A stretch of DNA of 34,353 nucleotides from Candidatus Coatesbacteria bacterium (GCA_014728185.1 WJMB01000138.1:1-34353); one strand, 5' to 3'; counted from the stretch's first letter, positions 1,248 through 32,238 are shown. The notes: generated from the sequence alone by a model not told the origin. Made by a program: numbers and translations.

Positions 1248-1583
1248 GGGATCAGTCTAAGCGGCGGAAGCTGATAAGCGAGGGAATGCTCACCTAGTTA
1301 TCGACCGCCATCGGCGGCTAATCGAATGTGACTTGACGCTTCCTAGCTCATTGTTCGTATCATTTGGCATCCTGGAGCCTGTTCGGCAAATAAACGTGAT
1401 TCAACGAGCGGGTCATTCGCCGTCTGGCAGAGCTGTGGACAGATTCCGATTTCAACAAGCGCATCCCTCGTCACGGCCTTTTTTCAAATGCTCATAAGTG
1501 CCGGCAGATTACAATCATATCCAGGTCCGAAGCGGTAACCATCTCTCGCTCCGGTTGCTGGTCCGGCTTCCTGTGTCGATCCC
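1248..1583. mobile_element. Degenerate MITE-like cluster (shared-type termini; decayed family C copy at ~1366-1545)
   Basis: Left end GGGATCAG-N9-CGGAAG (1248); right end reads GGGATCGA-N10-CGGACC on the minus strand (1560-1583). 1505-1533 GCAGATTACAATCATATCCAGGTCCGAAGCG resembles the right end of family C (32146-32177). Confidence 0.55.
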
Positions 1584-1695
1584 CATGCGCATCATGCATA
1601 TATTGCGTTTACCGTTCCGAGCCGATCCCGGCGACCACCCATGTGTCCGCTGATTTACCAACCACTGGTTCGAGGATCCAGTTCGAGGAGACATC

Positions 1696-2685
1696 TTGAC
1701 TGAGCGCTATTATCTTGGCGTCGACGTGGGCTCGGTGAGCACCAATTTCGCCCTGGTGGATGAGGGCGGCGAGGTCTCCCAGTCGCTCTACCTGCGCACC
1801 CAGGGCCGACCAATCGAGACCGTTCAGCGCGGTCTGGCCCAGCTCAACAAGCTGCTCGACGGTCGCTCCGAGGTCATCGCCGGCGTGGGCACCACGGGCT
1901 CGGCTCGTCAGCTCACCGCGGTGCTGGTCGGCGCCGATTCGGTCAAGAACGAGATCACGGCCCACGCCATCGCCGCGGGCCTCGAGATACCCGGCGTGCG
2001 CACCGTCTTCGAGATCGGAGGCCAGGACTCCAAGATTATCATCCTGCGCGAGAGCATCGTCGTCGATTTCGCGATGAACACGGTCTGCGCGGCGGGCACT
2101 GGTTCGTTTCTCGACCAGCAGGCGGCGCGGCTGGACATCGCCATCGAGGAGTTCGGCGGCTACGCCCTCAAGTCGACCAGCGCGGTGCGCATCGCCGGAC
2201 GCTGCACCGTCTTCGCCGAAAGCGATATGATCCACAAGCAGCAGATGGGCCACTCCACCGAAGACATCATCGCCGGATTGAGCGAGGCCCTGGTGCGCAA
2301 TTACCTCAACAACATCGCCCGGGGCAAGGACATCCAGCCCCCGATGGTTTTCCAGGGCGGCGTGGCGGCCAACGTGGGCATCAAGCGGGCCTTCGAGAAG
2401 GCCCTGGGTCACGAGGTCATCGTCCCCGAGCATCACAAGGTCATGGGAGCCATCGGCGCGGCTCAACTGGCGCGTGAGCGCGTCGAGATCACTGGCACGA
2501 CCCGATTCAAGGGCTTCGACGCCGCCGAGTTCAGCTACCGCACCCGGGGTTTCGAGTGCGGCTACTGCCCCAACGTTTGCGAGGTCGTCGAGATCCTGCA
2601 GGACGGCGCGGTGATCAGCCGCTGGGGCGACAAGTGCGGCCGCTGGCAGAACCTGGATGTTCCCAGCCCCGTCGGCAAGCGCTGA
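1696..2685 (+). CDS. 2-hydroxyacyl-CoA dehydratase activator-type ATPase (BadF/BadG/BcrA/BcrD, ASKHA fold, Fe-S)
   Basis: TTG start after GAGGAG. Motifs LGVDVGSVST, EIGGQDSK, MNTVCAAGTGSFLDQQA, RCTVFAESD, FQGGVAAN; C-terminal CxxCxxxC...C. Confidence 0.92.
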   Translation: MTERYYLGVDVGSVSTNFALVDEGGEVSQSLYLRTQGRPIETVQRGLAQLNKLLDGRSEVIAGVGTTGSARQLTAVLVGADSVKNEITAHAIAAGLEIPGVRTVFEIGGQDSKIIILRESIVVDFAMNTVCAAGTGSFLDQQAARLDIAIEEFGGYALKSTSAVRIAGRCTVFAESDMIHKQQMGHSTEDIIAGLSEALVRNYLNNIARGKDIQPPMVFQGGVAANVGIKRAFEKALGHEVIVPEHHKVMGAIGAAQLARERVEITGTTRFKGFDAAEFSYRTRGFECGYCPNVCEVVEILQDGAVISRWGDKCGRWQNLDVPSPVGKR

Positions 2686-2738
2686 TAAGCCGTGAGCGGC
2701 GGATCGACTGAAACCGTCGGAGAAAAACGCCTAAGGTC

Positions 2739-2767
2739 TTGACCTGTCATCAATAATCCGGTAACAT
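2739..2767 (+). promoter_or_regulatory. sigma70-type promoter of the HU gene
   Basis: TTGACC-17 nt-TAACAT, 130 nt upstream of the ATG at 2898. Confidence 0.55.
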
Positions 2768-2897
2768 CAAAATTCGTTACGGTACTACATTCTACAACGT
2801 AGAAAAAGCATACGTTTTTCCGGTTGCTGCGTACTAGGCTGACTGGTGAATCGCGGGTTCTCGTTATCCAACCCGGAGCGGCTTCAAGGAGTCGGCA

Positions 2898-3200
2898 ATG
2901 ACCAAAGCGGATCTGGCCCAAAAGATATCAAAAAGCACCGGTCTGACACTCAAGCAGACCACGGAGCTGATCAACGCCATCCTGGAGACGCTCATCGAGT
3001 GCCTGACGACGCCCGGCGACGAAGAGACACTCAAGAAGCAGCGCGTCGAGATCCGGGGCTTCGGCACCTTCCGCTTGCGCCATAAGCGCGCCCGGCAGGC
3101 CCGCAACCCGCGCACCGGCGAGATCATCGAGGTCAAGGAGAAGTGGGTTCCCCACTTCAAGCCGTCGAAGAAACTCAAGAGCATGCTGCCCGACGGTTAA
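2898..3200 (+). CDS. HU/IHF family DNA-binding protein
   Basis: MTKADL..., VEIRGFGTF, ARNPRTGE, PHFKPSKKLK; RBS AAGGAG. Confidence 0.95.
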   Translation: MTKADLAQKISKSTGLTLKQTTELINAILETLIECLTTPGDEETLKKQRVEIRGFGTFRLRHKRARQARNPRTGEIIEVKEKWVPHFKPSKKLKSMLPDG

Positions 3201-3239
3201 TAGACCGCTCTCACAGTTAGTTTCTGAAGTCAATAATCA

Positions 3240-3266
3240 AGACCGGTCCCGCGGAGGGCCGGTTTT
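3240..3266 (+). terminator. Intrinsic terminator after the HU gene
   Basis: ACCGGTCCC-gcgga-GGGCCGGT followed by TTT. Confidence 0.7.
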
Positions 3267-3561
3267 AAAACATAGGCAATATGTTGTCATCCGCGGTACT
3301 GACGCCTAAGATCATCACCTGGATATGGATCGCCATCTTCACTTTATGGCATGATTGATAAGTATTTTAACATCATGAGACGTCTTCGGACCAGATTATG
3401 CAGATAACTGGCGTTCACAGAACAGTTTGATGAACAATTTTTCGCTGTCTGGTCGATCGACGCATCGATCCCCATTCATCAAGAGTTCCCTTTCCGCTTG
3501 CTATTGAGTCGCTTGATGGGCTGCGTAGAAAGCAGATGGTTGGTAAATTCAAATTGCTTAC

Positions 3562-3908
3562 GGGATTATCACGCGTGATTTAACAGGTATGCATCGCTAT
3601 TAGCTGGATATATAGTGGTTTATAGCTGTGCAAGTCGTCCCTGTTTGTGCAAGGCCTGGTGGCGAAAACCAGACTTGCTCTATGAAGGTTCTTTAGAGAA
3701 CACGCATGAGAGTCGGGAAGTCGCGACTCCTGATTTACATCCCAGGTTGTATGAGACTAAACGCTTTCAAACAGCGGCTTTGGCAGGTATGAAAGCTCTT
3801 TGGCTCGTCGAATAAACAGCCTTGCGAAAGATTGTTGTCAGCACCTCCTTTCTAAATGCCGCGCTTTTGCGTTTTCGACGTAGGTTTTCAGTATCAGGTG
3901 ATAATCCC
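3562..3908 (-). mobile_element. MITE-like family B, copy 1 (347 bp)
   Basis: Terminal inverted repeat GGGATTATCAC...GTGATAATCCC. The interior aligns in reverse with 5293-5646 (e.g. AAAACCAGACTTGCTCTATGA vs TCATAGAGCAAGTCTGGTTTT). Confidence 0.85.
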
Positions 3909-3916
3909 AATGCTCA

Positions 3917-3966
3917 TTATCAGCAAATTACAACCATCAACCGGTCCGAAGAGGGTACTCAATCCC
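3917..3966 (+). repeat. Isolated right end of family C abutting B copy 1
   Basis: TTATCAGCAAATTACAACCATCAACCGGTCCGAAGAGGGTACTCAATCCC matches 32140-32189. Confidence 0.75.
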
Positions 3967-4203
3967 AAATGGTAAACAACGCCTCACAGCTCATCGTCGA
4001 GTCGTTCTTCTAACCATGATGATCCCTTCAGCTAATCAACTCAACCAATACGTGGTGTCCCGTGCTTCGTGGAATACCCATTCATCCCCCAGTCCCCGTT
4101 ACATCGTTCCAGTCCCGCCGGTCAGCCGCCCTGTATTGCAGCGGCTGCGGTTTAGCCACAAGCGTTGTACGTGATCAGGGCGCCGCCGTGCACGCCGGAC
4201 GGC

Positions 4204-4232
4204 TTGCCTTTTCCCGTCCCAACAGGTACAAT
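4204..4232 (+). promoter_or_regulatory. sigma70-type promoter
   Basis: TTGCCT-17 nt-TACAAT upstream of the small basic ORF. Confidence 0.6.
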
Positions 4233-4323
4233 ACCCGCTCATATTCAATGGGTTGACGCGCAGCACCCGCCCTTCGTCACTTGCCTGCTTCGATTGACCC
4301 TAGCGGCCGCTGAGAGGAGAAAC

Positions 4324-4416
4324 GTGGGTTCGAGCAAAAAGCGCAAGCGTAAAAAGATCGCCACGCACAAGCGCAAGAAGAAGCGCCGTGCGAATCGGCA
4401 CAAGAAGAAGAAGTAA
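4324..4416 (+). CDS. Small basic ribosomal protein bS22/mS38-like (AURKAIP1/COX24 domain), 30 aa
   Basis: GTG after GAGAGGAG; MGSSKKRKRKKIATHKRKKKRRANRHKKKK; has its own promoter and terminator. Confidence 0.88.
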   Translation: MGSSKKRKRKKIATHKRKKKRRANRHKKKK

Positions 4417-4418
4417 CC

Positions 4419-4447
4419 AAAGCCCCTGTCGCGGGGGCTTTTCTTTT
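4419..4447 (+). terminator. Intrinsic terminator
   Basis: AAAGCCCC-tgtcgcg-GGGGCTTT followed by TCTTTT. Confidence 0.8.
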
Positions 4448-4448
4448 A

Positions 4449-4809
4449 GGCACCACACACGACCTCGGACCAACCAACTTCAACTCGAAACACCACCCCA
4501 CCTCGAAAAAAAGCTGCTGATACGAAGCTATGCCGAATGATGTTTGGCCTGCCAGCTCAACCCCTCGGCGACTGCTAGTTATATATGCATGATAATTGAT
4601 TACTTAGCATCGATAAATCGTCATCGAAACCCATTGCGCCAGGCAGTTGATAATGGAGCTTCGTGACGCCGTCAGGGTATCCCGGGAATGTGAAAATCCA
4701 CGTACCTGCCACAATCAGTTCGCTCGATGTGCACATCTGATTGCCTGCTGACAGCATGTCTCAGAACGATATCCAGTAACACCATGGTCCGTGACCATTA
4801 AGTGATCCC
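4449..4809 (-). mobile_element. MITE-like family A, copy 1 (361 bp)
   Basis: Ends GGCACCAC / GTGATCCC. Collinear with 14230-14601 and the reverse of 7166-7527 and 29705-30064. Flanks TTCTTTTA / TTCTCATA (6/8, decayed TSD). Confidence 0.85.
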
Positions 4810-5292
4810 TTCTCATAATATATTGGAATCAAGTACGGAGTAGCCTGATAAGGGGCGAATGAATGTTTGCCGCCGACACGTAGCGGTCTTGCGGAGCAAT
4901 AATCATTGGACGGGGTCCTCCGACCCCGTCACCAAGCATTGCCATTTTGGATTAACGCGGACGTTTCGAAAGACCAAACCCTAGATATCCCCCCCCGATC
5001 TTGCTCTGTAGGGCGGCCCCTCTGCGAGCCCCCGCGAATATTAAACCGCGTTGCGGGTCTGCAACCTCTCATTCGTCCACGCCTTCCAGAATGCAAATGG
5101 ACGGTACAGGCGAGGACGAACGGTTTTTGACAGACCACACCGATGGTTCTTCTAGTCTCATTCGGTCTTGCACAATTCAATCTCGGTAACCACACTTACA
5201 GTACCGTCACAGTGAATTCACCCAGCAATTTCGCCACAATGCACATAACCCCCATTATCAGAAGCCCGCCACACGGCGGGGTAAAAGTAAAA

Positions 5293-5646
5293 GGGATTAT
5301 CACCTGAAACTGAACCTACGTCGAAACCTAAAAATAGCGTCATATAGAATGGATGTGCCCACAACTACCACATGAGGGCCTTCAGCTCGACGGGCCAAAG
5401 AGGGTTTGCGTATCAGCTAAACCAGCTGTTTGGAAAGATTTAGCATCCATATGACTGGTAAGACCGGGATGCTAATAAGGAGTCGGGACTTCCAGACTCT
5501 CAGCGTCCTCTTGCAGCGCCCTCATAGAGCAAGTCTGGTTTTCCGCCACCAGGCGACGCATGGACAGGGACAGCTCGCGCAGCTATAAAGTACATGATAT
5601 CAAGCTATTAGCGATATATGTCTGTTCAGGAACGTGTGATAATCCC
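5293..5646 (+). mobile_element. MITE-like family B, copy 2 (354 bp) with a perfect 8-bp TSD
   Basis: TIR GGGATTATCAC...GTGATAATCCC, flanked on both sides by AAGTAAAA (5285-5292 and 5647-5654). Confidence 0.9.
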
Positions 5647-6018
5647 AAGTAAAAACTGGGCTCCTTGACGCTTGCCAAAATATTTCAGTTTAAAAACTAG
5701 GTCGGGCAAGAAACGTCGGGAGTTTAATGGTTAGGCCGCGTTGCCATCATGAAACACACAGGTGACTTTCGATCAGGCGCAATGAATAATGGAGCAGACT
5801 TGATACTACAGATCTGCTCCATAGGATAACTCATTGATCAAGCATCCAAAATAGGTATTGATTTGCACCGCCGAGAACTATTAGATAGACTGCCCGCCAG
5901 TTGCGGTATCAATCAGTAGCTTGTGAATCAAGGGTACTAAAACCCCTCCCCTGTCGATGATCGACGCTCTCCGGCCCTCTGAGAAGCTCGTTTATTAGTA
6001 GATGCTAATGCTTTGGGG

Positions 6019-6684
6019 CTAGCTCTCGCCGCTTCCGCCCCGCTTCTCCAGGCGGCGCGGCTGGAGGTTGTGCTCGTCGATGGAGAGCATGGTCACCAGT
6101 TTTTGCTTGGCCTTGGCCGGGTCATCGGACCGGGTCACGGAGCTGATCACGGCGGTGTAGGCCGGGTGGGCGTCGAGGACCAGGGCCAGCTTGTCCGGGG
6201 TGATGCCGCCGATGGCGCAGACCGGCAGCTCGCAGGCGGCGGTTATCTCCTTGACGGCGCCGACGCCGATGGGCTCGAGAGCGGGCTTGGTCTGGGTGCC
6301 GAAGCAGGGGCCGGCGGCCAGGTAGCTGGCTCCGTCCCGCTGGGCGTCCACGGCCTGCTGCCTGTTTCTGACGGTGCGGCCGATCAGAAGCTCGCCGCCG
6401 ACCAGGCGGCGGACCACCTCGACGGGCAGGTCGTCGGCACCCAGGTGGACGCCGTCGGCTCCGGCGGCCAGGGCGATGTCCACCCGGTCGTTGACGATGA
6501 AGGGCACCCCGGCCTCGTGACAGCGACGCGAGAACTCCAACGCGGCCTGGTGGAACTCGCGATCGCTCAGGTTGTCGAGGCGCAACTGGAACACCCCGCA
6601 GCCGGCCAGAAACTCCGTGGTGAAGAGCTTCAGGTTGGCCTCGAGGCCCAGGGTTTCGTCGGTTATCAGATAGAGTCGGGCCAT
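6019..6684 (-). CDS. thiE: Thiamine-phosphate synthase
   Basis: LYLITD, QLR, FIVNDRVDIALAAGADGVHLG, GPCFGTQTK, AIGGI motifs. Confidence 0.92.
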   Translation of the reverse strand: MARLYLITDETLGLEANLKLFTTEFLAGCGVFQLRLDNLSDREFHQAALEFSRRCHEAGVPFIVNDRVDIALAAGADGVHLGADDLPVEVVRRLVGGELLIGRTVRNRQQAVDAQRDGASYLAAGPCFGTQTKPALEPIGVGAVKEITAACELPVCAIGGITPDKLALVLDAHPAYTAVISSVTRSDDPAKAKQKLVTMLSIDEHNLQPRRLEKRGGSGES

Positions 6685-6819
6685 CGCACACCTGCCGGGG
6701 TAGGTTTGAGGATCAATGCATTATACTGTTTGATTGACATCGTCGGATTGACGTCGTCTGGGGTTATCGTTTCCAGCGTTTGCGGAAGAGCGTCAGGCTG
6801 AAGGTGATTTAACGAAAGT

Positions 6820-7158
6820 TGTATCACACTCATGGAGCATACCCCACGTCTCTGACACGTCTTTGGCTGCTGAACTTGTACTTCTGCTACTACACGCGTT
6901 TTATCGGGAGTTACTATCTCCAATGAGCAGATGAAAAGCAGCGCTGACAAAGGGTAGGCCTTATGGATAACCTTCTATGCCAGCAGCTTGTACTTAAAGT
7001 CCTTCCGATTGCTACTCGACTGATAAGCGCATCAATGTCAAGGCCGAAGGATGCGCAGGGTGATATCGGTCAAAGACCAACGCACCCGGACGGCTACTAC
7101 CTGCTCGGTGAACCTCTCGATATCAGCTCTGTTTGGTCCAAGCACGCTCAATGATGCC
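6820..7158. mobile_element. Rearranged family C element: C(+) fragment ~6820-6920 joined to C(-) ~6925-7158
   Basis: 6964-7158 aligns with 11210-11405 and ends GGTCCAAGCACGCTCAATGATGCC. 6882-6918 aligns with 24574-24610. 6900-7120 is the reverse complement of ~14045-14226. Confidence 0.7.
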
Positions 7159-7165
7159 CGGCGTT

Positions 7166-7527
7166 GGGATCACTTAACTGTCACGGACCATGGTGTTACT
7201 GGATATCGTTCAATTATCAGCAGTTGGGGGACAATCAGGTTTGCACATCGAATTAGTTGTTTGTGGCAGGTCAAGTGGGTTTCCACATTCCCATGATGCT
7301 CGTGTTGATTTCTCGGCGCTCAACAAGGAACTGCTTGCTACTATCGGCCTCGATGAAGATGTGTCGATCCCAAATAGCCTAATAGCAAACATATATAACG
7401 AGTAAGCACTGGTATTTGAAGACAAGAGTCTGCTCTTTCTTCGGCATTGTCATGTATCAGGCGTTTTTTGCGAGGTGGGGCGGTGTTTCGAGTTGTAACT
7501 AGCTAGTCCGGGATCGTGTTTGATGCC
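7166..7527 (+). mobile_element. MITE-like family A, copy 2 (362 bp)
   Basis: Starts GGGATCACTTAACTGTCACGGACC and ends GTTTGATGCC; 7232-7271 is identical to 29771-29810. Confidence 0.85.
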
Positions 7528-7534
7528 CTTCTTA

Positions 7535-7639
7535 ATTGCAATTTTAAAAAGCTTGTTTTGTGACGGGTGTCCGATACCAATCACGTATATTATCAACAGG
7601 ATAGAATCACGAGCAGGTCCGAAGAGGGTATACGATCCC
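7535..7639 (+). repeat. Family C right-end fragment
   Basis: Reverse-complement match to 29601-29703; ends GGTCCGAAGAGGGTATACGATCCC. Confidence 0.8.
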
Positions 7640-7769
7640 TAATCATTTTCACGGTTCTTAACGGCTATCGACCAGAGCAGCGGGTCGGGCGACCTGTAGG
7701 CAGGTAGGAGCGCCGGGGTGTGCTTGCTCAGTTGTCAACATTCGAAAACCAGTCAAGCATAGATGTTGG

Positions 7770-11087: not shown

Positions 11088-11405
11088 GAGATCATATACT
11101 CTGATCGGACCGGGCTGTGTTCGTAATCTGCTTATATTACACGTGTAGCAGAAGATATACCTGTCACTTTCCAGCAGAAAAAAGTGGTGGTGATATGGGA
11201 CATGCTCGTTGGATAACCTACCCTGCCTAGTTGCCTGCAAAGAAAGACCACCCGATTGCCGCTCGACTCATAACTGCCCCAATATCAAGTAACAAGACTA
11301 CGCATGATAAGTATCGGGATTCAAGCCGAACGCAACTAAACAGCCAACTCCTCGTGAAGCTCTCATTATCGACCCTGATTTGGTTCGATCACGTTCTATG
11401 ATGGC
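11088..11405 (-). mobile_element. MITE-like family C, full-length copy (318 bp)
   Basis: End-to-end reverse alignment with 31867-32189 (e.g. CCGCTCGACTCATAACTGC); ends GAGATCATATACTCTGATCGGACC / GGTTCGATCACGTTCTATGATGGC. Confidence 0.85.
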
Positions 11406-13834: not shown

Positions 13835-13887
13835 AGGCGTACCCCGGGGTTGAGTTGGTTTGGGTTGATCGGCACTGGTTGAAAACG

Positions 13888-14227
13888 GGGATCAGAAACA
13901 CACTGGGACATGATCGGCTTCAACGGCTTGTTCCGGCGCAGCGCGCGAGGAGCCGAGCCCGTCGATCGTTCATGCAGATCGAGAAGCCAGGCACTCCAGA
14001 ACATTGGCTGGAACTGCAACACCGCCGCATCCACCAAAGAAAGGACAGTTCACCGAGCGGTCACTAGTCGTTCGGTTGCGTCGCGTTTTGATACCGAAGA
14101 TAAGTCGAAGGGCAACCGGATGGACGCTAAACACAAGCTGCTAGCATAATAGGGTATCCTCAAGGCTTACCCCTGTCAGCGCTGCTTTTCATCTGCTCAT
14201 TGGAGATAGTAACTCCAGATTAAAGCC
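13888..14227. mobile_element. Degenerate MITE cluster including a rearranged family C copy (~14045-14227)
   Basis: Left end GGGATCAG-N9-GGGACA at 13888; TGTCAGCGCTGCTTTTCATCTGCTCATTGGAGATAGTAACTCC (14174-14216) is the exact reverse complement of 6907-6949. Confidence 0.7.
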
Positions 14228-14229
14228 TA

Positions 14230-14601
14230 GGGATCACACACGATCATGGACCAGCTAGTTATAACTCGAAACACCGATCCACCTCGAAAAACGGCTGATA
14301 CGAGGCTATGCCGAATGATGTTTGGCCTGTCAACTCAACCCCTCGGCGCCTGCTAGTTATAGCCTGTTAGTTATATATATGATAATTAGTTACTTGGCAT
14401 TAATGAATCGTAATCGAAGCCCATTGCGCCAGGCAGTTTCTTCTTGAGCGCCGAGAAGTCATAACAGGCATTATAGAAATGTGAAACCCCGCTTAACTTG
14501 CCACACACTAAAAACTCGATGTGTAAACCTGCTTGCCCGCTAACTGCTGATAATTGAACGATATTCAGTAACACCATGGTCCGTGACCATTAAGTGATCC
14601 C
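14230..14601 (-). mobile_element. MITE-like family A, copy 3 (372 bp; small internal tandem duplication near 14350-14375)
   Basis: TIR GGGATCAC...GTGATCCC; collinear with 4449-4809. Confidence 0.88.
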
Positions 14602-14602
14602 T

Positions 14603-14736
14603 TGTTTCATTATCAAGCAATAAGGCCGCGCAAGCTGGTATCGGGGGCACCTTAAGACGCACCCAATCTGCGACTGTCTGCTTGCTGAACCTTTCACTAT
14701 CGGCCCTGATTTGATTCGTAAGAGTTCCATGATCAC
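14603..14736 (-). repeat. Family C left-part fragment abutting A copy 3
   Basis: TCAAGCAATAAGGCCGCGC and CCCTGATTTGATTCGTAAGAGTTCCATGATCAC align with 11285-11405. Confidence 0.7.
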
Positions 14737-14777
14737 GTACGATGATAACCCACCGCCACTCGATAAACCGACGGGGA

Positions 14778-14854
14778 GGCGTTGGCGCGTTTGTTGCGCA
14801 GGCGGGGGTTGGTTCGCAGTGGCGGTGCGCACTCGCAAGAAACGTGCCAACGCC
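14778..14854. promoter_or_regulatory. Inverted repeat made of two convergent sigma54-consensus sites (copy 1)
   Basis: TGGCGC-GTTTG-TTGC (14783-14797, +) and TGGCAC-GTTTC-TTGC (14849-14835, -), 37-nt spacer. Confidence 0.55.
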
Positions 14855-14869
14855 GGTTCAGGCCGGAAG

Positions 14870-17717: not shown

Positions 17718-17718
17718 G

Positions 17719-24417: not shown

Positions 24418-24641
24418 GGCACCATGGAATGTGTTTGGAATGAATCAGGGCGGATACTGACAGGCTCACCGAGCAGGCAATCGCCGACTGCAGGCTTATT
24501 CACAGTGCAGTTTATCATCCGAGCACACCCCATATCGCCGCCGCTTCTTGACCGCTGATAAGTGACAGGCGCATCTGCTGCTACACGCGTCTTATCAGGA
24601 TAATACAATCGCTACTCGATCCGCACAGGGTATACGATCCC
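24418..24641 (+). mobile_element. MITE-like family C, internally deleted copy (224 bp)
   Basis: Both ends present (GGCACCATGG... / GGGTATACGATCCC); flanks TTCTGATA / TCCTGAGA (6/8 TSD). Confidence 0.8.
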
Positions 24642-24725: not shown

Positions 24726-24767
24726 GCAAGGCAAAATGGCCGCCCACGGGCGACCATTTTGCCTTGC
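24726..24767. terminator. Long hairpin between convergent genes
   Basis: GCAAGGCAAAATGGCCGCCC-ac-GGGCGACCATTTTGCCTTGC. Confidence 0.7.
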
Positions 24768-24799
24768 TGTTGGAAACCGTTTTACTGGAGAAACTTCGG

Positions 24800-25780: not shown

Positions 25781-25985
25781 TTTTGACCTCCCCTGGGTCG
25801 GGTGAGCTCATCATTACTGGACTCCGCTATCTAGGATACACCCGACACCACCTCGGTTGCGCTGTACTTGAGGGGATGACCCAGTGTGTCGAACCGCGCC
25901 GGTTCAATAGGCTGTTATGATACAGTGCAGTTAGAAAAAATACACGCCTGTCGTATTGTTATTGTTATGATATCATTAATACTAT

Positions 25986-26332
25986 GGGATTATCACCTGA
26001 AACTTAACCGACATTGAAAGGACACTGAGCGGAATATAGAGCGAAAGTGCCAACAACCAGCTCACGAATGGCTCCAGATCGATATGCCAATATTATCATA
26101 TCTGCTAAGTAGCTATTTAAAAGCATATGGCATCCTAAGACTGTGAAGCCAAGGATGTACGCCAGGAGTCGCGATTACTCGACTCGCAACGTTCCATTAG
26201 AATGTTCCGCTTAGAGAACATACGTTTTATGCCAACGGGCAACACACGGACACTGACAACCCGCATGGCAATAAGACACTAAACAACAGGCTATTGGCCA
26301 TATATGCCTGTCCAGGTACGTGTCGTTATCCT
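25986..26332 (+). mobile_element. MITE-like family B, copy 3 (347 bp, diverged)
   Basis: Starts GGGATTATCACCTGAAACT like 5293; internal CAGGAGTCGCGA; ends CTGTCCAGGTACGTGTCGTTATCCT. Confidence 0.75.
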
Positions 26333-26511
26333 CTATTCAATGACCCCTCAGCGTGAAGCTCCTGAGGGGCGTTTTCATATCTAACGCAGCATCGTAGAGG
26401 TGTTAAGCACACCAGTACTGATGCTAACCTGCCAGTTCTGTCCGTTATCGTACTGTTTTCGCCGTTTGAAGTCCGGAACATGGTCGGTGACCTGGTTACG
26501 ATATACATCCC

Positions 26512-27282
26512 CTAGGCGTCCGAGTCGACAGGATCGACGGCGTTATTCGGACGGTGGAGCTTGCGGCCGAAGAGGCGCCGGAAGGGGCGGCTGATGGCGG
26601 CGAAGCCGTCGCGCAGCGTGGTGCGCAGGGAATCGGCGATGGGTCGCAGCAGGTAGAAACGGGTCATTCCACGAACACTGGTGCGCAAGGCGCCCTGTCG
26701 CCAGGTGAACAAACGGGGAAGTAAGGCGCCGCTGCGACCTTGATAGTCCAGGTATTCCCCGCCGTAACGCTCGATCAGGGAGCGCTCCTCGCGACCCAGC
26801 CTGTACAGGACCAGCGGCAGGGCCAACACGATGTTCGAGAAACCGGCGGCAAAGTTCCAGACCAGCAGGGGTTGGGCCAGGCCCCACAGTAGGTGGGAGG
26901 CGTACATCGGGTGGCGCAGCCGGGCGTAGACGCCCGTGGTCACCAGGTCGGCGCTCTCCCGTGGCTCGGCTCCCGGGCTCCAGTTGGAGGCCAGGTCGGC
27001 GTGGGAGCGCCAGAGCAGCCAGGCCGCGCCGAGCATCAGCACCGAGCCAACCGGGACGGCCCAGCGCCCCAGGGTGTAATCGAAGGTCGCCAGCCAGTCC
27101 GTGGCCGCATAAACAACGGGCAGAACGAACATCCCGGTGAAGGGAAGCAGGGTCAACAGAAGTCCCGTCAAACCGAACCGACGTTCACCCTTCAGCGGTC
27201 GGTTGCCCAGGGTGTAGACGACGCGCAGCGCCGTGAGCAGCGCCAGCAGGGCGAAGTAGACGTAGACGCCGTTGGGTCGCAT
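26512..27282 (-). CDS. Isoprenylcysteine carboxyl methyltransferase (ICMT) family membrane protein
   Basis: WRSHADLASNWS, LVTTGVYARLRHPMY, REERSLIERYGGEYLDY. Confidence 0.88.
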   Translation of the reverse strand: MRPNGVYVYFALLALLTALRVVYTLGNRPLKGERRFGLTGLLLTLLPFTGMFVLPVVYAATDWLATFDYTLGRWAVPVGSVLMLGAAWLLWRSHADLASNWSPGAEPRESADLVTTGVYARLRHPMYASHLLWGLAQPLLVWNFAAGFSNIVLALPLVLYRLGREERSLIERYGGEYLDYQGRSGALLPRLFTWRQGALRTSVRGMTRFYLLRPIADSLRTTLRDGFAAISRPFRRLFGRKLHRPNNAVDPVDSDA

Positions 27283-27459
27283 CGGGTCGTCCTTGAATCA
27301 GGGAAACGCAGTTGGGCGGGAGCTCCGAGATTAACGGAGGCGGGCAAAGGCAAGCGGATGTGATTCTAATACAGCCCGCCGCGCCGGGCAACGGCGGGGT
27401 GGGATTGACGATTACCGGCGACCTCGGCTCGTCGTTCTCGCGCGACTGGGTCGAAAACC

Positions 27460-27541
27460 GGCTTTGGCACGTTTTTTGCGCCGTCCCGCCGCCCCTGGTC
27501 GGCCGGCGATGTCTTCCTGTTGCAAAAAACGTGCCAAAGCC
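27460..27541. promoter_or_regulatory. Inverted repeat made of two convergent sigma54-consensus sites (copy 2)
   Basis: TGGCAC-GTTTT-TTGC at 27465-27479 (+) and 27536-27522 (-), 42-nt spacer. Confidence 0.6.
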
Positions 27542-27736
27542 TGGCGTACATGGGATTGCGCGGGTGCCGGACGAGGGGGGGCCGAGGTCGCCGGTGCGTT
27601 GGCTGACTGAACGCGGATCGACGATTCTTTGCCCCTTTTTGGTCCGATCGGGTTGCCTGATGCCTTCTGGTTCCCACTCGACAACGACCGGGTCCGAGGA
27701 CCCGGCCGCGCGTAAACCCGTGGTTGGGTTATCGGC

Positions 27737-29131
27737 CTAGCGCCAGTGGTCGTGCAGGAAGGCGTCGACCTCGGGCAGGCCGCCCTGGAGCACCACGTAG
27801 GCGTTGTACTGCTCGCGTTCGGTGATTTCGCCGTTGACCGGGGTGAGCATCAGCTCCTTGACCCGCTCGGCGTCGTCGCTCATCCCCAGCGCCCAGCCCA
27901 GCTTGATGTAGGCGGCCTCGGGCAGCATATTCGCCAGGGGGACGACCCCCAGCTCCATCAGGTCGCGCCCGGTGTCATAAACGTACATCTGGGCGTAGCC
28001 CCAGAGGGTCTGCACAGTCATGTAGACCTGAACGCCGGACTCGCAGGCCTTGCGCAGCGGTTCGTAGAGCGGTTTGTTGACGTGGCCCAGTCCGGTCCCG
28101 GCGATGACGATGCCCTTGTAACCGTTGTCGATCAGGCTTTCGATGATGTCGGGCTGCATGTTGGGGTAGTAGTAGACGATGGCCACGCGCTCTTCGAAGA
28201 CGTCATAGAGATTTAGCTTTCGCTCGGGATCGCGCCGGGTGAAATCGCGACGCAGCGGCTCGGGCGGGGCCTCCGGGGTGACGGTGGCCAGCGGGGTGTC
28301 GCCCAGGGTACGGAAGGTGCTGCGGTAAGAGCTGTGCATCTTGCGGACCCGGGTGCCACGGTGCAGCAGATTGTAGCGGTCCGAGGTCGGACCGAACATG
28401 CAGACCAACACCTCGGCCAGCTCGCCGTGGGCGGCGGACTGGGCGGCGCACTGCAGGTTGAAGGCGGCGTCCGATGAGGGGCGGTCGCTGGAGCGCTGGC
28501 TGCCCACCAGGATCACCGGAACGGGGAGGTCCTGGAGCATGTAGGACATGGCGGCGGCGGTGTGATGCAGGGTGTCGGTGCCGTGGCCGATGATGATTCC
28601 GGCGACGCCGTTTTCGATCTGCTTGGCGATCTCCCGGGCGGTAATCAGGTACTGTTCGGGGCCCATGTTCTCGCTGAAGACGCCGAAGAGCTTCTTGGTC
28701 TCGAGGTTGCAGATGTCGGCCAGCTCGGGGCAGGCGCCGTAGAGCTCGCCGGGACTGAAGGCGGGTATCACGGCGCCGGTGCGGTAGTCCAGGCGGCTGG
28801 CGATGGTCCCCCCGGTGCCCAGCAGCGTCACGTTGGGCTTGGCGGGATCAAAGGGAAACTCCTGCTCGGGAATCTTGTAATGGGCCTCTTTGTAGTCGTG
28901 CTCGACGATGCTCTGGATGCGTTCCACGGCGATGCCGATGTTGTAGCCCGTGTTCATCTTGAGCACGATGTGGCGGTCGTCGGCCTGTTCGGAGCGCGGC
29001 AGGATGATGCCGGAGAACTCGCCGGTGTCGGTAGTGATGGTGCAGTCACTCCAGACCCGGGCGCCAAGCCGCTTGAGCAGCTCGCGTCCCCGGCCGCGGT
29101 AGCCCTTGTAGGGATCGGGGGTGTCGGTCAT
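27737..29131 (-). CDS. gatD: Glu-tRNA(Gln) amidotransferase subunit D (archaeal type; asparaginase fold with N-terminal domain)
   Basis: ATG at 29131 after GGAG; N-domain VLKMNTGYNIGI; TGGTIASRLDYRTGAV, HGTDT, GSQRSSDRPSSD, GTRVRKMHS, GTGLGHV, MLPEAAYIKLGWALG. Confidence 0.88.
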   Translation of the reverse strand: MTDTPDPYKGYRGRGRELLKRLGARVWSDCTITTDTGEFSGIILPRSEQADDRHIVLKMNTGYNIGIAVERIQSIVEHDYKEAHYKIPEQEFPFDPAKPNVTLLGTGGTIASRLDYRTGAVIPAFSPGELYGACPELADICNLETKKLFGVFSENMGPEQYLITAREIAKQIENGVAGIIIGHGTDTLHHTAAAMSYMLQDLPVPVILVGSQRSSDRPSSDAAFNLQCAAQSAAHGELAEVLVCMFGPTSDRYNLLHRGTRVRKMHSSYRSTFRTLGDTPLATVTPEAPPEPLRRDFTRRDPERKLNLYDVFEERVAIVYYYPNMQPDIIESLIDNGYKGIVIAGTGLGHVNKPLYEPLRKACESGVQVYMTVQTLWGYAQMYVYDTGRDLMELGVVPLANMLPEAAYIKLGWALGMSDDAERVKELMLTPVNGEITEREQYNAYVVLQGGLPEVDAFLHDHWR

Positions 29132-29194
29132 CGTCGCTCCAGTGTCTTTGCGTCCGGATGCAGCTTCCAGTATGGTTGTCCGGCGAGAGAGGCG

Positions 29195-29224
29195 ATTGTA
29201 GCAACGCTCGACCGCTTTAGTAAA
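29195..29224 (-). promoter_or_regulatory. Promoter of gatD
   Basis: TTTACT-18 nt-TACAAT with a TG extension. Confidence 0.5.
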
Positions 29225-29361
29225 GCCTCTCAAGCCGGGCCTTCGACCGGAGGGAAAGCCGACCATTCACAAGTCCTCGTCTACGCTTCGAGTCGGATAT
29301 GCCCCACATTTGCCAGACCGCACATCGCCTGCTATAGTGAGTCTATGTCGATACTCGGCTT

Positions 29362-29470
29362 AATATCATCTGCTCTGTCCGGACCGAATATTGATTGTAA
29401 CCTTCTGAAAACACTAATGATGAACCTCAGATACTACTCAGAAAACCGGCTGTTAAAAAGGCGGTGGCAA
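29362..29470 (-). repeat. Degenerate family C end fragment
   Basis: CTCTGTCCGGACCGAATATTGATTGTAACC resembles 29612-29641. Confidence 0.5.
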
Positions 29471-29600
29471 TCAAAGGGCGTTATCTGTAGCAGATTTTAG
29501 TATCAACGTGCTTGAATGTGCCCTGAGGGCAGCGAGCTACCTGGACCTAAGTACAGTAATAACAAGCACTAAGGGCGCACCAAGTTAACGCTATATAAAA

Positions 29601-30147
29601 GGCATCGAATACCCTGTCCGGACCTGATCGTGATTGTATCCCGTTGATAATAGACTTGATTGGTATCGGATACCTGTCACGAAACAGGCTTTTAATAATT
29701 GCATGGGATCACTTAATGGTCACGGACAATAGTGTTACTGGAGATCGTTCTGATACAAGCTGTCATTGGGCAATCAGGTTTGCACATCGAATTAGTTGTT
29801 TGTGGCAGGTACGTGGATTTCCACATTCCCAGGATACCCTGACGACGTCACGAAGCTCCATTATCAACTGCCTGGCGCAATGGGTTTCGATGACGATTCG
29901 TCGATGCTAAGTAACCATTTATCATGTATATATAACTAGCAGGCACCGAGGGCTTGAGTTGGCAGGCCAAACATCATTCGGCAAAGCCTCGTATCAGCGG
30001 CTTTTTTCGAGGTGGATCGGTGTTTCGACTTGAAGCTGGTTGGTCCGAGGTCGTGTGTGATGCCAACTGCATTTCTGGTAAGTGAAGAACGGCCCAACAA
30101 CCCGCTCCCAATCAGCCTGATCTGGTCCTATCACGTTCCATGATGTT
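29601..30147 (-). mobile_element. Family C copy (29601-29704 plus ~30065-30147) interrupted by A copy 4
   Basis: Starts GGCATCGAATACCCTGTCCGGACC; far end GGTCCTATCACGTTCCATGATGTT matches 11382-11405. Confidence 0.7.
29705..30064 (+). mobile_element. MITE-like family A, copy 4 (360 bp) with 8-bp TSD
   Basis: GGGATCACTTAA...GTGTGTGATGCC, flanked by AATTGCAT / AACTGCAT (7/8). Confidence 0.9.
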
Positions 30148-30239
30148 CTCGCTTTCAGGCATTCCCGTTGTCCCGCGAGGACGTTACTCTACTTGCCTGT
30201 CAATAACCGCTCCACACAGTAAAGCGAAAGGAGCCCGCT

Positions 30240-30905
30240 ATGAAACGACTGCTGCCCCTGCTTTTTGCGGCGGGCGTGATGGCCCTGCCCACGGTCGAAG
30301 CCGCCGCTCCGGCCGACGACCTCCTCTTCACCGAGGACTGGGGCGATCCCGCCTCCTGGAACATCAACAATCCGCCCACCGGCTGGACGATCAACGACCT
30401 GGTCCCCGGCGGGAACCTGGGCTGGGTCCACGACACCTTCCAGGACGGCCACAGCGCCCATGTGGATTACAGCCCGACGGAAACCAGCTTCCAGTACGAG
30501 CTGCTGATGGATAGCCACAGCGTGGACTGCTCCGGCTACAGCGAGATCGAGCTGGCGATGGACTTCGTCCTCGACTGGTACACCACCGCCGGCGGTGTCT
30601 TCGAGATCTGGGTCTCCACCGACGACTGGGCCGGCTACGACGTCGCGCTGACCCACAGCTACGCCGACGGCAGCGTCGGTTACTACGATTGCTGAGGCGG
30701 CGCCCACTCTTACGAGGCCGTGGTTTACGGTCTCGCAGACTACGCCGCTGGATATGACAACGTCAAGCTGGGCTTCGTCCTCTCGGGCACCGACACCTAC
30801 GACAACCTGGACGGCTTGCTGATCGACAACCTTGAAATCCGCGGGGAGGCGGGCAGCCGGACCGAGGTAGCCAGCTTCGGCGAGATCAAAGGCGCCTACC
30901 ACTAG
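30240..30905 (+). CDS. Secreted protein (221 codons) with an in-frame TGA at 30693-30695; candidate selenoprotein, otherwise a nonsense pseudogene
   Basis: RBS AAGGAG; signal peptide; ORFs 30240-30695 and 30720-30905 share a frame with one TGA between them; ends in a MAM/jelly-roll-like LIDNLEI strand and TEVASFGEIKGAYH; terminator follows the second half. Confidence 0.7.
30708..30739 (+). promoter_or_regulatory. Candidate bacterial SECIS element
   Basis: CGAGGCCGT-GGTTT-ACGGTCTCG 9-bp stem plus TCT/AGA lower pairs; G-starting loop 26 nt after the TGA. Confidence 0.45.
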
Positions 30906-30933
30906 GCATTGTCGGGTAGAAGCAAAGCGGCAC

Positions 30934-30960
30934 GGGGACCGGGTTTACCGGTCCCCTTTT
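30934..30960 (+). terminator. Intrinsic terminator
   Basis: GGGGACCGG-gttta-CCGGTCCCC followed by TTTT. Confidence 0.85.
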
Positions 30961-30989
30961 CCATTCTAAGTGTCGCTCGTTGTCCCTTT

Positions 30990-31059
30990 AACGTTGGTTC
31001 AGTTGCAGGTGATAATCCCATTAGCGATATGCATCAGTTCAGGTGCGTGTGATATTTTC
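30990..31059. repeat. Two stacked family B termini
   Basis: 30996-31019 GGTTCAGTTGCAGGTGATAATCCC (one B end), then 31021-31059, which matches 5608-5646 (the other B end). Confidence 0.7.
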
Positions 31060-31063
31060 AACC

Positions 31064-31087
31064 AAAAAGCCCGCCGGAGCGGGCTTT
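31064..31087 (-). terminator. Intrinsic terminator of iscU
   Basis: AAAGCCCGC-loop-GCGGGCTTT; the A5 tract gives a U run on the minus strand. Confidence 0.75.
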
Positions 31088-31118
31088 CGTTTTATCTAGT
31101 TTCTGGAAGATCACGGAG

Positions 31119-31583
31119 CTATTCGGGTTCACCCTCGGCGAACTCTGCGTGGTGCTCGTGGTCGCATTCGCCGCCCAGGTCCATCTTGTCCATCTCCGGG
31201 CATTCGCCGTTGCGGCGGCAGCGGTAATGGGCGATCGCGGCGCGCAGGGCGTCGGTGGCCAGGTTGCTGCAGTGCATCTTGATCTTGGGCAGGCCGCCCA
31301 GGGCCTGGGCGACGGCGTCCCGCGTCAGCTTCTCGGCTTCGTCCAGGGTCATCCCCTTGGCCAACTCCGTGGTAATCGAGCTGGTGGCGATCGCCGCACC
31401 GCAGCCGAAGGTCTTGAAGGTGCAGTCGGTGATGCGCTCGTTCTCATCGACCTTGATGTAGATCTCCATGATGTCGCCGCAGGAGGGGTTGCCGACTCGG
31501 CCGATGCCGTCGGCGTCCTCCAGGGTTCCCACGTTGCGCGGGTTCATGAAGTGGTCCATCACCTTTTCGGTGTAAGCGTCCAT
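31119..31583 (-). CDS. iscU: Fe-S cluster scaffold IscU/NifU-N with a Cys/His-rich tail
   Basis: YTEKVMDHFMNPRNVG, GNPSCGD, FKTFGCGAAIA, LGGLPKIKMHCSNLA. Confidence 0.92.
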   Translation of the reverse strand: MDAYTEKVMDHFMNPRNVGTLEDADGIGRVGNPSCGDIMEIYIKVDENERITDCTFKTFGCGAAIATSSITTELAKGMTLDEAEKLTRDAVAQALGGLPKIKMHCSNLATDALRAAIAHYRCRRNGECPEMDKMDLGGECDHEHHAEFAEGEPE

Positions 31584-31634
31584 CTCTAGGTTACCTCGGT
31601 TGGAGTGTGAACTTTACCAGCTTGGCACAATCCC

Positions 31635-31663
31635 AGTATGCCACAAAAGGAATTAAACGGCAA
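31635..31663 (-). promoter_or_regulatory. Promoter of iscU
   Basis: TTGCCG-17 nt-CATACT; a TGGCA-N11-TGCCA inverted repeat (31623-31643) overlaps the -10. Confidence 0.5.
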
Positions 31664-31866
31664 TCATGTAGGGAATTATCTTCAGCGGTTTGAGCGGCGG
31701 AGGTATCCGCCCACATTCGAGCGATAGTCGAGAAGCGGTAGCCTCCGTTATCATTCCACGAAGCTGAACAGGCAGGTTCGCACAGATAGCCGCCGCAAGG
31801 GAGTTACGCCATCTCTGGTTTTCCGTTTGTTACTATCACTCGTATTCGAACCGCTAGATACAGTCA

Positions 31867-32189
31867 GGCATCATGGTACGTGATCGGACCAAATCTGGGC
31901 GGATATTGCACGGTGCACTGAACAGGTACTCGTTGTTTGTGTGCGCCCGAGTTTGATCCCGATTTTACCACGCGCAGCCTTATTGCTTGAATATGAAGCA
32001 GTTATGAGTCGAGCGGTATTCGGGTGACCGTTAACTGCAAGGCAATAGGCAGGGTGGGTTATCCTCCGAGCACACACCTTGCAACCGCCACTATTTTGAT
32101 CGCTGAAAAGTGACAGGCACCTTTTCTACTGTACGTTTGTTATCAGCAGATTACAAACGAAACCCGGTCCGAACAGGGTATATGATCCC
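31867..32189 (+). mobile_element. MITE-like family C, full-length copy (323 bp)
   Basis: Ends GGCATCATGGTACGTGATCGGACC / GGTCCGAACAGGGTATATGATCCC; aligns with 11088-11405 in reverse and with 24418-24641. Confidence 0.85.
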
Positions 32190-32238
32190 ATTGAACGATA
32201 TTCTGTAACACTCTGATCCGTGACAGCTAAGTGATCCC
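32190..32238 (-). repeat. Isolated family A end abutting the C copy
   Basis: ATTGAACGATATTCTGTAACACTCTGATCCGTGACAGCTAAGTGATCCC matches 14553-14601. Confidence 0.8.

Follow-up and report, generated by a model that had tools for sequence, protein, structure and literature searches.

The window analysed here, the whole stretch of 34,353 nucleotides from a Candidatus Coatesbacteria bacterium (genome G000), contains repeats that are confirmed as several families of small gene-less mobile elements, MITEs, from IS1595-type transposons. They are very probably non-coding MITEs of 320-375 bp that are moved, lineage by lineage, by resident IS1595-family transposases. The copies, their ends, the target duplications, filled and empty sites, the ends of the cognate IS and the transposase domains were all observed directly. 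MITEs are an ordinary kind of element, and those described here are notable mainly for their unusually high load, which amounts to about 6% of the genome of an uncultured bacterium.

Profile HMMs were built from genome-wide copies and run on the window with nhmmer, which gives the coordinates and model positions used below. A first-pass annotation had listed ten copies of families A, B and C in the window, and profile matches were found at all ten:

3562..3908, plus strand: B1, family B MITE, full length, 347 bp (nhmmer 1-353, E 1e-85)
4449..4809, minus strand: A1, family A MITE, full length, 361 bp (nhmmer 1-361, E 2e-113)
5293..5646, minus strand: B2, family B MITE, full length, 354 bp (nhmmer; perfect 8-bp duplication AAGTAAAA)
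7166..7527, plus strand: family A MITE, full length, 362 bp (nhmmer 1-361, E 4e-106)
11088..11405, plus strand: C1, family C MITE, full length, 318 bp (nhmmer 3-320, E 2e-84, match 11090-11403)
14230..14601, minus strand: family A MITE, full length, 372 bp, in the pheT-pheS spacer (nhmmer 1-361, E 4e-106)
24418..24641, minus strand: family C MITE with an internal deletion, model positions ~155-246 gone (two nhmmer matches, 247-322 and 1-154)
25986..26332, minus strand: B3, family B MITE with a degenerate right end (nhmmer 2-353, match ends 26331)
29705..30064, plus strand: family A MITE, full length, 360 bp, nested among D fragments (nhmmer 1-361, E 1e-114)
31867..32189, minus strand: C2, family C MITE, full length, 323 bp (nhmmer 1-322, E 3e-93)

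The flanks of A1 read TTCTTTTA/TTCTCATA, and the pheT-pheS assignment is based on Pfam searches of the genes that flank 14230-14601. Between A, B and C the interiors cannot be aligned, as had been noted from the sequence (no alignment by blastn; best cross-family profile E 0.75-5.5), and the window indeed encodes no transposase. A fourth family, D, which is homologous to C with 68% identity across the full length, is also present, and nhmmer reveals that the window is rich in truncated and nested repeat pieces beyond the ten copies above:

1366..1531, minus strand: decayed C-type fragments (nhmmer E ~1e-5)
3371..3555, minus strand: C/D-type fragment adjoining B1 (nhmmer C 146-320, E 1e-12)
3910..3966, minus strand: C/D-type left-arm fragment adjoining B1 (nhmmer C 1-57; repeat family D1)
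6876..7158 (piece 6831-7158), plus strand: family C copy without the first ~33 bp (nhmmer 34-322, E 1e-48)
7522..7639, minus strand: family D fragment, left arm, model 1-119 (nhmmer E 2e-26; end motif 7616-7639)
14042..14209, minus strand: family C fragment (nhmmer 74-282, E 8e-16)
14604..14733, plus strand: family C fragment, right part (nhmmer 190-319, E 2e-25)
29365..29701, plus strand: two family D fragments with mutated termini (nhmmer, model 4-229 and 1-101)
30068..30145, plus strand: family D fragment, right arm, model 243-320 (nhmmer E 5e-16)
30959..31054, no strand assigned: two short family B end fragments (nhmmer)
32190..32238, minus strand: family A left-end fragment, 49 bp, abutting C2 (nhmmer A 1-49; repeat family D3)

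The terminal inverted repeat is bipartite and 24 bp long, with GGSAT at the tip and YGGACC or TGAAC at positions 18-24. The end sequences quoted earlier for A, B and C read as given, and the four quoted flank repeats are correct, with AAGTAAAA matching at 8/8 positions, AATTGCAT/AACTGCAT at 7/8 (29705-30064), and the two others at 6/8. Flank identity is maximal at exactly 8 bp, separately in A, B and C. The suggested 8-bp target site duplications exceed chance by a wide margin: 72 of 237 full copies (30%) retain a duplication of at least 7/8, whereas 1000 shuffled pairings gave 0.69 such copies on average and never more than 4. In family D such duplications are found in 5 of 32 copies, a figure that may in part reflect a model end register that is one base off. 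The duplications are 71% A/T (55 well-matched ones scored) in a genome of 64% GC.

The expectation of further copies genome-wide was borne out, as self-blastn with the ten window copies returned 453 merged loci, each query matching 76-152 contigs. Profile searches of the 2.9-Mb assembly determined that families A-D occupy 742 loci, of which 281 are full length, and that the repeat load is 170,256 bp or 5.87% of the assembly. The median lengths are 360 bp for A, 351 bp for B, 320 bp for C and 321 bp for D, and family A has the youngest copies, with 18 of 51 less than 10% from the consensus. A scan for the end motif GGSATYRY-N8-11-YKRAMC found 523 occurrences in the genome and 6 in a reversed-sequence control. 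Pattern searches for the end motif counted 560 in G000, 725 in the congener G001 and 82 in a sister genus. Two further relatives had 17 and 20, and the control counts were 3-10. As observed earlier, no copy in the window lies inside a gene, and the same is true of the full copies genome-wide (0/281), although this is partly true by construction, since the crude GC3-based ORF calls that were used would split a disrupted gene.

Both empty and filled sites were found. A C copy of 320 bp in G000 (C326:498-817) interrupts a transposase gene and is flanked by a perfect 8/8 duplication, AGAACCAT, and the paralogue of this gene on contig C245 is uninterrupted at the insertion site. Between species, genes across a syntenic 32 kb of G001 are 88-95% identical to those of the window, and the 788-bp block 29362-30149 is absent from the syntenic G001 site, where the flanking alignments overlap by 5 bases. 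B1, A1 with B2, and C1 are also missing from the syntenic sites of G001, which has other copies that the window lacks; C1 is likewise missing from contigs of the public runs X6 and X9. At the 7166-7527 site, contigs of runs X1 and X2 join 7115 to 7680 with 54 other letters between. Most of the interspecies empty sites are not clean, because the surrounding intergenic DNA has diverged or holds other insertions.

The proposed origin from the IS1595 family is upheld by resident transposase fragments with the PF12762 domain (DDE_Tnp_IS1595), whose IS ends are the ends of the MITEs. PF12762 has 13 matches in G000 and 36 in G001, many of them fragments; P0003, P0004 and a G001 fragment score 111-115 bits with this model, whose cut-off is 27. 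The zinc-finger model PF12760 falls short of its cut-off of 25.4 on P0004, with 19.5 bits, and is precomputed on several homologues; a CPxC...CKxC pattern is visible in the transposase alignment. The right ends of the IS carry a C/D-type or B-type repeat directly after the transposase coding sequence, and A-type ends were found behind transposase remnants in G000:C326 and L082. At least three IS lineages co-reside. They are distinct in their terminal repeats, in the N-terminal DNA-binding region and in the C-terminal tail, and the terminal repeats of each match one MITE group: A, B, or C/D. Because no complete transposase gene is assembled in G000, where the copies are cut by contig ends, internally deleted or interrupted by stops, current activity in this strain is inferred. 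Fourteen right ends of the IS1 lineage are no more than 550 bp from a contig end, a pattern that a near-identical multi-copy IS should produce. Intact homologues of 258-260 aa and 89-93% identity occur in metagenomes, and their C-terminal tails are of three kinds, one for each type of right end. Related 880-bp IS in other phyla share 55-60% protein identity and the same GGGAT...GGACC 24-bp ends, which match at 17-21 of 24 positions. The partner IS has a single transposase ORF, which spans from about nt 98 into the right repeat. Two IS copies in G001, L012 and L013, were inspected by eye and have no matching 8-bp flanks; the G000 copies are contig-cut.

The first-pass annotation attributed all families to one trans-acting transposase, and this part of its reading gave way to at least three lineages, whose ends each match one MITE family and whose N-terminal regions are divergent, although the lineages may cross-mobilise. 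A single IS1595-family enzyme that reads the shared GGSAT...GGACC and amplified A-D, with the end variants a product of neutral drift, is unlikely. It would account for the occurrence of both conserved terminal-repeat blocks in all families and in the distant IS relatives, and it suits catalytic cores that are 81-94% identical between lineages. However, identity falls to about 58% over residues 1-105, the putative N-terminal zinc-ribbon/HTH region where the lineages diverge most and which is the part expected to read the ends, and the ends of each family, with the subterminal DNA too in C/D and B, fit one IS lineage best. The single enzyme also draws on the presence in G000 of only one, decayed, A-type IS junction, yet the A copies are the youngest and the IS1 lineage is the abundant IS. 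Against this, an A-type partner exists in the clade, with 9 junctions in G001 and 19 in the sister genus (several at contig ends), and it may be unassembled in G000.

The arms of the elements point to the preferred reading of several transposases with cognate MITE families. Family D aligns to positions 1-105 and the last 26 bp of the IS1 lineage, family B aligns to the first 33 bp of the IS2 lineage by BLAST and to about 55 nt by eye, and the left-arm homology of A to IS3 comes from a forced MAFFT alignment of five sequences. No transposase remnant was found in the MITE interiors (best blastx E 0.19), and all 597 interior blastn matches fall inside MITE loci. On this reading the MITE families descend from separate IS lineages that differ in their repeat and N-terminal variants, A from one, B from another, and C together with D from the third. 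The C/D elements, and probably those of A, retain the left arm of the IS as far as the region of the transposase start codon (~105 nt) together with about 26 nt of the right end; family B retains about 55 nt of the left arm. About 200 nt of interior make up the rest. DDE transposases of the IS1595-family IS in the same genome would then move the MITEs in trans, each acting mainly on its cognate family, into AT-rich 8-bp targets that are duplicated on entry. Copies gather in intergenic DNA, nest in each other and decay neutrally, and the strain presumably holds intact IS copies inside which the assembly breaks.

It is very improbable that the elements are retained for a host function, such as a structured RNA, a mobile promoter or terminator, or architectural DNA, that fixes their length and interior. 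A conserved DNA or RNA function had been raised from the narrow length range and found no counterpart in folds, Rfam or orientation. Consensus structures of the interiors were absent in eight tests, with alifold energies near zero (-0.2 to -6.6 kcal/mol, z -3.2 to +0.3), and the lowest z, -3.2 at -6.6 kcal/mol, was found for the B plus strand only. Rfam gave 0 matches at the gathering threshold; with the limit relaxed to E<=1 there were 0 and 1 matches, which is chance level, and no MITE contained one. Relative to tandem neighbour genes, 66 copies have the same and 63 the opposite strand, and neither promoter-like sites (7 vs 4.0±2.1) nor terminator-like sites (5 vs 4.1±2.7) are enriched. What favours a function is the left arm, which holds the IS 5' untranslated region as far as the start codon, and the orthologous copy of B3 in G001:C13, identified by pairwise alignment, in which the right-hand ~50 nt upstream of a gene are about 95% conserved between species. 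The rest of B3 decays, and both it and C2, whose junction is also occupied in an alignment with G001, are strongly diverged and gapped beside flanks that are about 95% identical. The likeness in size of unrelated families (~321/322, 353 and 361 bp) would also suit a function, but the size constraint proposed from it is not seen within a family, where indels climb in step with substitutions as plain descent predicts, and constant length inside each family fits shared descent. An assembly or binning artefact, from a foreign organism or chimeric joins in a fragmented metagenome bin, can be practically dismissed: the assembly is in 405 contigs of at most 35 kb with repeats often near contig ends, but in the independent congener G001, whose contigs are longer, these families sit between the same conserved genes, the genes and the spacers with MITEs are covered by contigs from four public runs, each of a different study, and completeness is 99.4% with 0.2% contamination.

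Among known systems, a MITE of Haloquadratum walsbyi from ISHwa6 (IS1595 family) is reported with 165 bp and 7 copies, and like the present elements it is a non-autonomous IS1595-family derivative, with a 25-bp inverted and an 8-bp direct repeat (PMC3852290). In contrast to this archaeal case, the elements here belong to a bacterium, fall into four main families whose members measure 320-375 bp, and are paired with three cognate IS lineages. The IS1016-subgroup element ISApl4 is described as having the DDE_Tnp_IS1595 domain, 8-bp AT-rich duplications and mainly non-coding insertions (PMC12561309), and the catalytic blocks given for it, DESYFG / SD / HINGIENFW / FRFN, can also be seen in the transposases of this system. 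ISApl4 is 712 bp long with 14-bp repeats, GGGGCTG... (PMC12561309), whereas the partner IS have 24-bp GGGAT...GGACC repeats, are about 880 bp long in intact relatives and feature a putative CxxC...CxxC zinc ribbon with an HTH. The IS1016 group is described as being without the N-terminal zinc finger that other IS1595 groups have (PMC8101967). The elements resemble Correia, Nezha, Chunjie, ERIC and QMITE in their resident-IS-like ends, target duplications and intergenic positions, and, like the classical bacterial MITEs described there, they grade in size and sequence from complete to truncated and occupy sites that are empty in relatives (PMC10969869, PMC3184786). Classical bacterial MITEs are mostly given as ~100-235 bp, and the elements here are larger and take a higher share of the genome. 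In a preprint census that covered 183,232 genomes, the highest values reported for a genome are 468 MITEs and a share of 1.23% (bioRxiv 10.1101/2024.01.18.576219); they are not strictly comparable with the figures here because the detection method differs. Merlin transposons are reported to encode a DDE_Tnp_IS1595 transposase and to have 5'-GG termini, repeats of 24 bp or more and duplications of 8-9 bp (PMC8101967); Merlin and its MITEs share a related transposase and similar ends and duplications with the present system, but are eukaryotic.

The ten mobile-element copies that the first-pass annotation had placed in families A, B and C, together with their ends and four flanking direct repeats, are all present in the window as described on direct reading. 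The copies that are referred to individually here are as follows.

3562-3908, family B copy B1
4449-4809, family A copy A1
5293-5646, family B copy B2
7166-7527, family A copy A2
11088-11405, family C copy C1
25986-26332, family B copy B3
29705-30064, family A copy A4
31867-32189, family C copy C2

The further copies predicted elsewhere in the genome were found. A blastn search of the genome bin (G000) with the ten copies gave 1329 matches, which merge into 453 loci (A 101, B 136, C 216) covering 111 kb. Profile HMMs built from copies with strict ends on both sides identified 742 loci in the assembly, 281 of which are full length (A 54, B 73, C 118, D 36); these MITE loci occupy 170,256 bp, or 5.87% of the assembly, with a density of ~97 full copies per Mb (2.9 Mb). 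The end motif occurs 523 times in the genome versus 6 times in a reversed-sequence control. When each end motif was joined to its nearest inward-facing partner and the interior was ignored, 101 pairs were obtained, 76 of which are spaced 310-380 bp with two modes near 320 and 360. The 76 elements fall into four clusters (23, 21, 19, and 9 members) and 4 singletons. The fourth cluster, family D, had been missed in the first-pass annotation and is homologous to C over its full length with 68% identity. Other families with B-like ends are also present, and these are smaller and older. The consensus sequences of A, C, and D feature, by eye only, a CTGATA/TTGATA motif located 10-47 nt inside the GGACC box in both arms. 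Among the 41 genomes searched, A and B are confined to G000 and its congener G001, and C is additionally found in one genome of a sister genus, as a 321-bp C-type copy with 71% identity. The end-motif counts across genomes are 560 in G000, 725 in G001, 82 in the sister genus, and 17 and 20 in two further relatives, with 3-10 in controls.

The window is contig C6 of the G000 bin, which consists of 2.9 Mb in 405 contigs with 64% GC, and its completeness and contamination are 99.4% and 0.2%, respectively. The DNA runs that contain parts of the window are labelled as microbial-mat metagenomes. Among the genes of the window are pheS, pheT, and one for a TonB-dependent receptor, and the nearest named relatives of PheS are from Latescibacterota and other FCB-group lineages at only ~60% identity. 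The repeat-bearing spacers of the window have a GC content down to ~50%. The pheT and pheS genes are usually adjacent; in the window they are separated by a spacer of ~1 kb (13835-14869) that is occupied by one complete A copy plus two fragments of C, and the G001 spacer is 1.5 kb and holds other elements (B and A pieces). A much smaller repeat, with two 20-nt arms (GGCTTTGGCACGTTTTTTGC and its complement) ~43 nt apart, is located at 27459-27542, and a related arm is located at 14830-14853. These two places have 16-19 further matches in the genome, one arm is kept in G001, and the repeat may be a separate small palindromic element.

Insertion of the MITEs produces target duplications of the length that had been proposed. 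In each of families A, B, and C, flank identity is highest at a length of exactly 8 bp, which was repeated in the profile-defined set, and the flanks of 72 of 237 full copies match at 7 or more of 8 positions, compared to a mean of 0.69 and a maximum of 4 in 1000 shuffled pairings, so that the match is far better than chance. The well-matched duplications are 71% A+T, with A/T preferred at positions 1, 2, 7, and 8. No gene call contains any of the 281 full-length copies, a result that is partly circular because the caller would split a disrupted gene. MITE bases overlapping crude gene calls amount to 0.7%, versus 72% coding overall.

The elements had been likened to the IS1595/IS1 type, and the IS1595 reading is supported by matches to PF12762 (DDE_Tnp_IS1595), by matching IS and MITE ends, and by the 8-bp duplications. 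PF12762 is found at 13 places in G000 and 36 in G001, and in 1 of 14 genomes of a control set. The same annotation held that a single transposase amplified all of the families. This is not supported. An alignment of the transposases revealed three C-terminal tails, each of which is specified by a single right-repeat type and terminates within it. There are thus three IS1595-family lineages, with tails and ends matched to one type each.

IS1, tail ...LLNWSDQVT, C/D-type right end
IS2, tail ...ILHACS, B-type right end, represented by the transposase homologue P0003
IS3, tail ...ILIGP, A-type right end, represented by the transposase homologue P0004

In G000 the transposase coding sequence runs into a C/D-type right end in at least 8 contigs and into a B-type right end in contig C87 and, in decayed form, in C89, and the transposase sequence of C326 terminates in an A-type repeat. 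Junctions of the A-type IS number 1 in G000, 9 in G001, and 19 in the sister genus. The alignment also places the stop of the transposase frame within the right terminal repeat in C184, C245, C87, and C326, so some residues of the tail (W-S in one lineage and G-P in another) are coded by the conserved GGACC box. The catalytic core of P0003 is 81-94% identical to that of the C/D-type fragments, and residues 1-105, which include the zinc ribbon and the HTH, are only ~58% identical. IS relatives at 55-60% protein identity, from bins of Gammaproteobacteria and Acidobacteriota, measure 880-883 bp and have 24-bp GGGAT...GGACC ends. Since these distant relatives share the ends, the end signature that was first noticed in the window is a property of this IS clade.

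No complete transposase gene was found in the G000 assembly, and the pieces are cut, contain stops, or are internally deleted. For fourteen right ends of the C/D-type IS, the nearest contig end is no more than 550 bp away, as expected because near-identical IS copies break an assembly. Intact homologues of 258-260 amino acids with 89-93% identity are present on ~1-kb metagenome contigs, and these feature HTH_23, PF12762, and, weakly, the IS1595 zinc ribbon. An internal deletion of transposase residues ~106-158 is common to contigs C47, C308, C332, and C170. Mid-sized non-autonomous IS derivatives of ~720-780 bp are seen in these four contigs and at loci L012, L013, L039, L101, L102, and L104; those in G001 and the sister genus have deletions other than that of G000. 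In size these derivatives stand between the MITEs and the complete IS, as a third class.

The kinship of the MITEs with the IS is located in the arms. D aligns with IS1 over the last 26 nt and, on the left, over the 105 nt that lead up to the GTG start, and C aligns with the same ends more weakly. B and the left arm of IS2 have ~55 nt in common, 33 nt by BLAST and the rest by eye. A aligns loosely over ~105 nt with the left arms of the sister-genus A-type IS in a forced alignment. Outside the arms, the ~200-nt interiors do not resemble the IS, the best match of the interiors to transposase proteins has an E value of 0.19, and all 597 interior matches in the genome lie inside MITE loci. The A, B, and C/D interior profiles do not cross-match, except for C with D. 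In the terms used in a 2024 review (PMC10969869), C/D and B lean to type I MITEs and A leans to type II. A small conserved ORF from the retained start codon was rejected, as the consensus frames, read by eye, stop after 10 (C), 13 (A), and 35 (D) codons and are unrelated.

The clearest case of mobility is in contig C326 of G000, where a 320-bp C copy (498-817), with AGAACCAT perfectly duplicated on its two sides, splits a transposase gene; the paralogous gene in C245 is uninterrupted across this octamer. Comparison with G001, in which positions 50152-82420 of contig C13 are collinear with window 41-31893 and genes are 88-95% identical, revealed that a 788-bp block (29362-30149) made up of D pieces and A4 is absent from G001, where the flanking alignments overlap by five bases. 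The B1, A1 plus B2, and C1 elements are also absent, from short G001 spacers, and G001 carries full D copies and other pieces at sites that are empty in the window. Only B3 and C2 share positions in both, and most spacers are filled in both species by different elements. The empty sites predicted from the first-pass annotation are borne out by the 788-bp block and, at a paralogous site, by the C326/C245 pair. Single-copy sites between species (B1, C1, and a G001 D copy near window ~27640) gave uninformative global alignments, since the intergenic sequence on either side has diverged too far or carries further insertion differences. Contigs from two public runs jump from 7115 to 7680 and carry 54 other letters in place of window 7116-7679 (564 bp), a stretch that takes in A2, a D fragment, and the terminal part of a C copy. 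The depth of these contigs equals that of the single-copy genes on either side, which suggests a structural variant among closely related strains. Two other public runs contain G001-like forms without C1. In the 788-bp block, the outer D-type element is mutated at its two tips (29363-29386 and 30124-30147), GGG to AAT and GCC to GTT, and this is predicted to make it immobile. At the break between the end of C13 and the start of C14 in G001, opposite window ~31900-32400, a B-type IS end is inserted in the C2 orthologue, an example of how such elements fragment assemblies.

The narrow length range had been taken to suggest a size constraint or a conserved DNA or RNA function. In family B the lengths span 339-389 bp. 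Within families, length varies with a standard deviation of 1-18 bp and indels rise with divergence from the consensus, the mean number of events in family A being 0.7 (<10% divergence), 5.3 (20-30%), and 15.8 (>30%), so narrow within-family lengths need no special constraint. Between families, three unrelated interiors give elements of ~321, 353, and 361 bp, and this likeness stays as a weak hint of an architectural requirement. Such a requirement could reflect a set transposition architecture of the IS clade, in which a left arm of ~105 nt to the transposase start codon, a ~200-nt spacer of any sequence, and a ~26-nt right end would be needed because the ends might be joinable only across a loop with a minimum of roughly 300 bp; MITEs of independent origin would then all arrive at 320-375 bp. 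In a linked proposal, the three co-resident IS lineages would have kept near-identical catalytic cores and diversified their DNA-binding heads and ends, which would give each lineage a private MITE set. Taken jointly, these two ideas are improbable. Helical phase was rejected by arithmetic only, as 321, 353, and 361 bp are out of common phase at 10.5 bp per turn.

A conserved DNA or RNA function is not supported. Consensus folds of 25 copies per family gave near-zero interior energies of -0.2 to -6.6 kcal/mol (z -3.2 to +0.3), the exception being the plus strand of B only, weakly. The MITEs have no Rfam matches, their orientation relative to tandem neighbour genes is even (66 same and 63 opposite), and promoter-like and terminator-like sites in them are not enriched. 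The B3 and C2 orthologues are decayed, being heavily substituted and gapped beside flanks that are ~95% identical. The one exception is the last ~50 nt of B3 (window 26282-26332, including the mutated end), which are ~95% identical between species in an otherwise decayed copy. They are located upstream of the gene at 26512-27282 (minus strand) and may have been co-opted as regulatory DNA.

The interest of the system is moderate and is due to the MITE load and the three matched IS/MITE lineages. It provides a worked-out mobilome for an uncultured microbial-mat bacterium, in which the MITE and IS load explains the fragmentation of the bin and why its intergenic DNA is long and more AT-rich than its genes. 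The three lineages with their matched families are a natural system for studying how IS1595-family transposases recognize their own ends versus those of a relative. In annotation, MITE profiles would keep these repeats from being called genes or new RNA families.

MITEs of IS1595-family IS are already on record; the MITE derived from ISHwa6 in Haloquadratum walsbyi is described as an element of 165 bp that is present in 7 copies and has an inverted repeat of 25 bp and a direct repeat of 8 bp (PMC3852290). No account of families A-D was found in the literature on IS1595 and MITEs, with ISfinder and subscription journals outside the scope of the search. PMC8101967 characterizes the IS1595 family by one gene, duplications of 8 bp, a zinc finger at the N terminus, and DDE_Tnp_IS1595 at the C terminus. 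The elements here agree with this, the duplications being those around the MITEs and the zinc finger a weak match, and the catalytic blocks given for ISApl4 in PMC12561309 fit the transposases here. A census preprint of 183,232 genomes gives at most 468 MITEs per genome and at most 1.23% of the genome (bioRxiv 10.1101/2024.01.18.576219); the 5.9% base share in G000 is several times this maximum, though the two figures were obtained with different detection methods.
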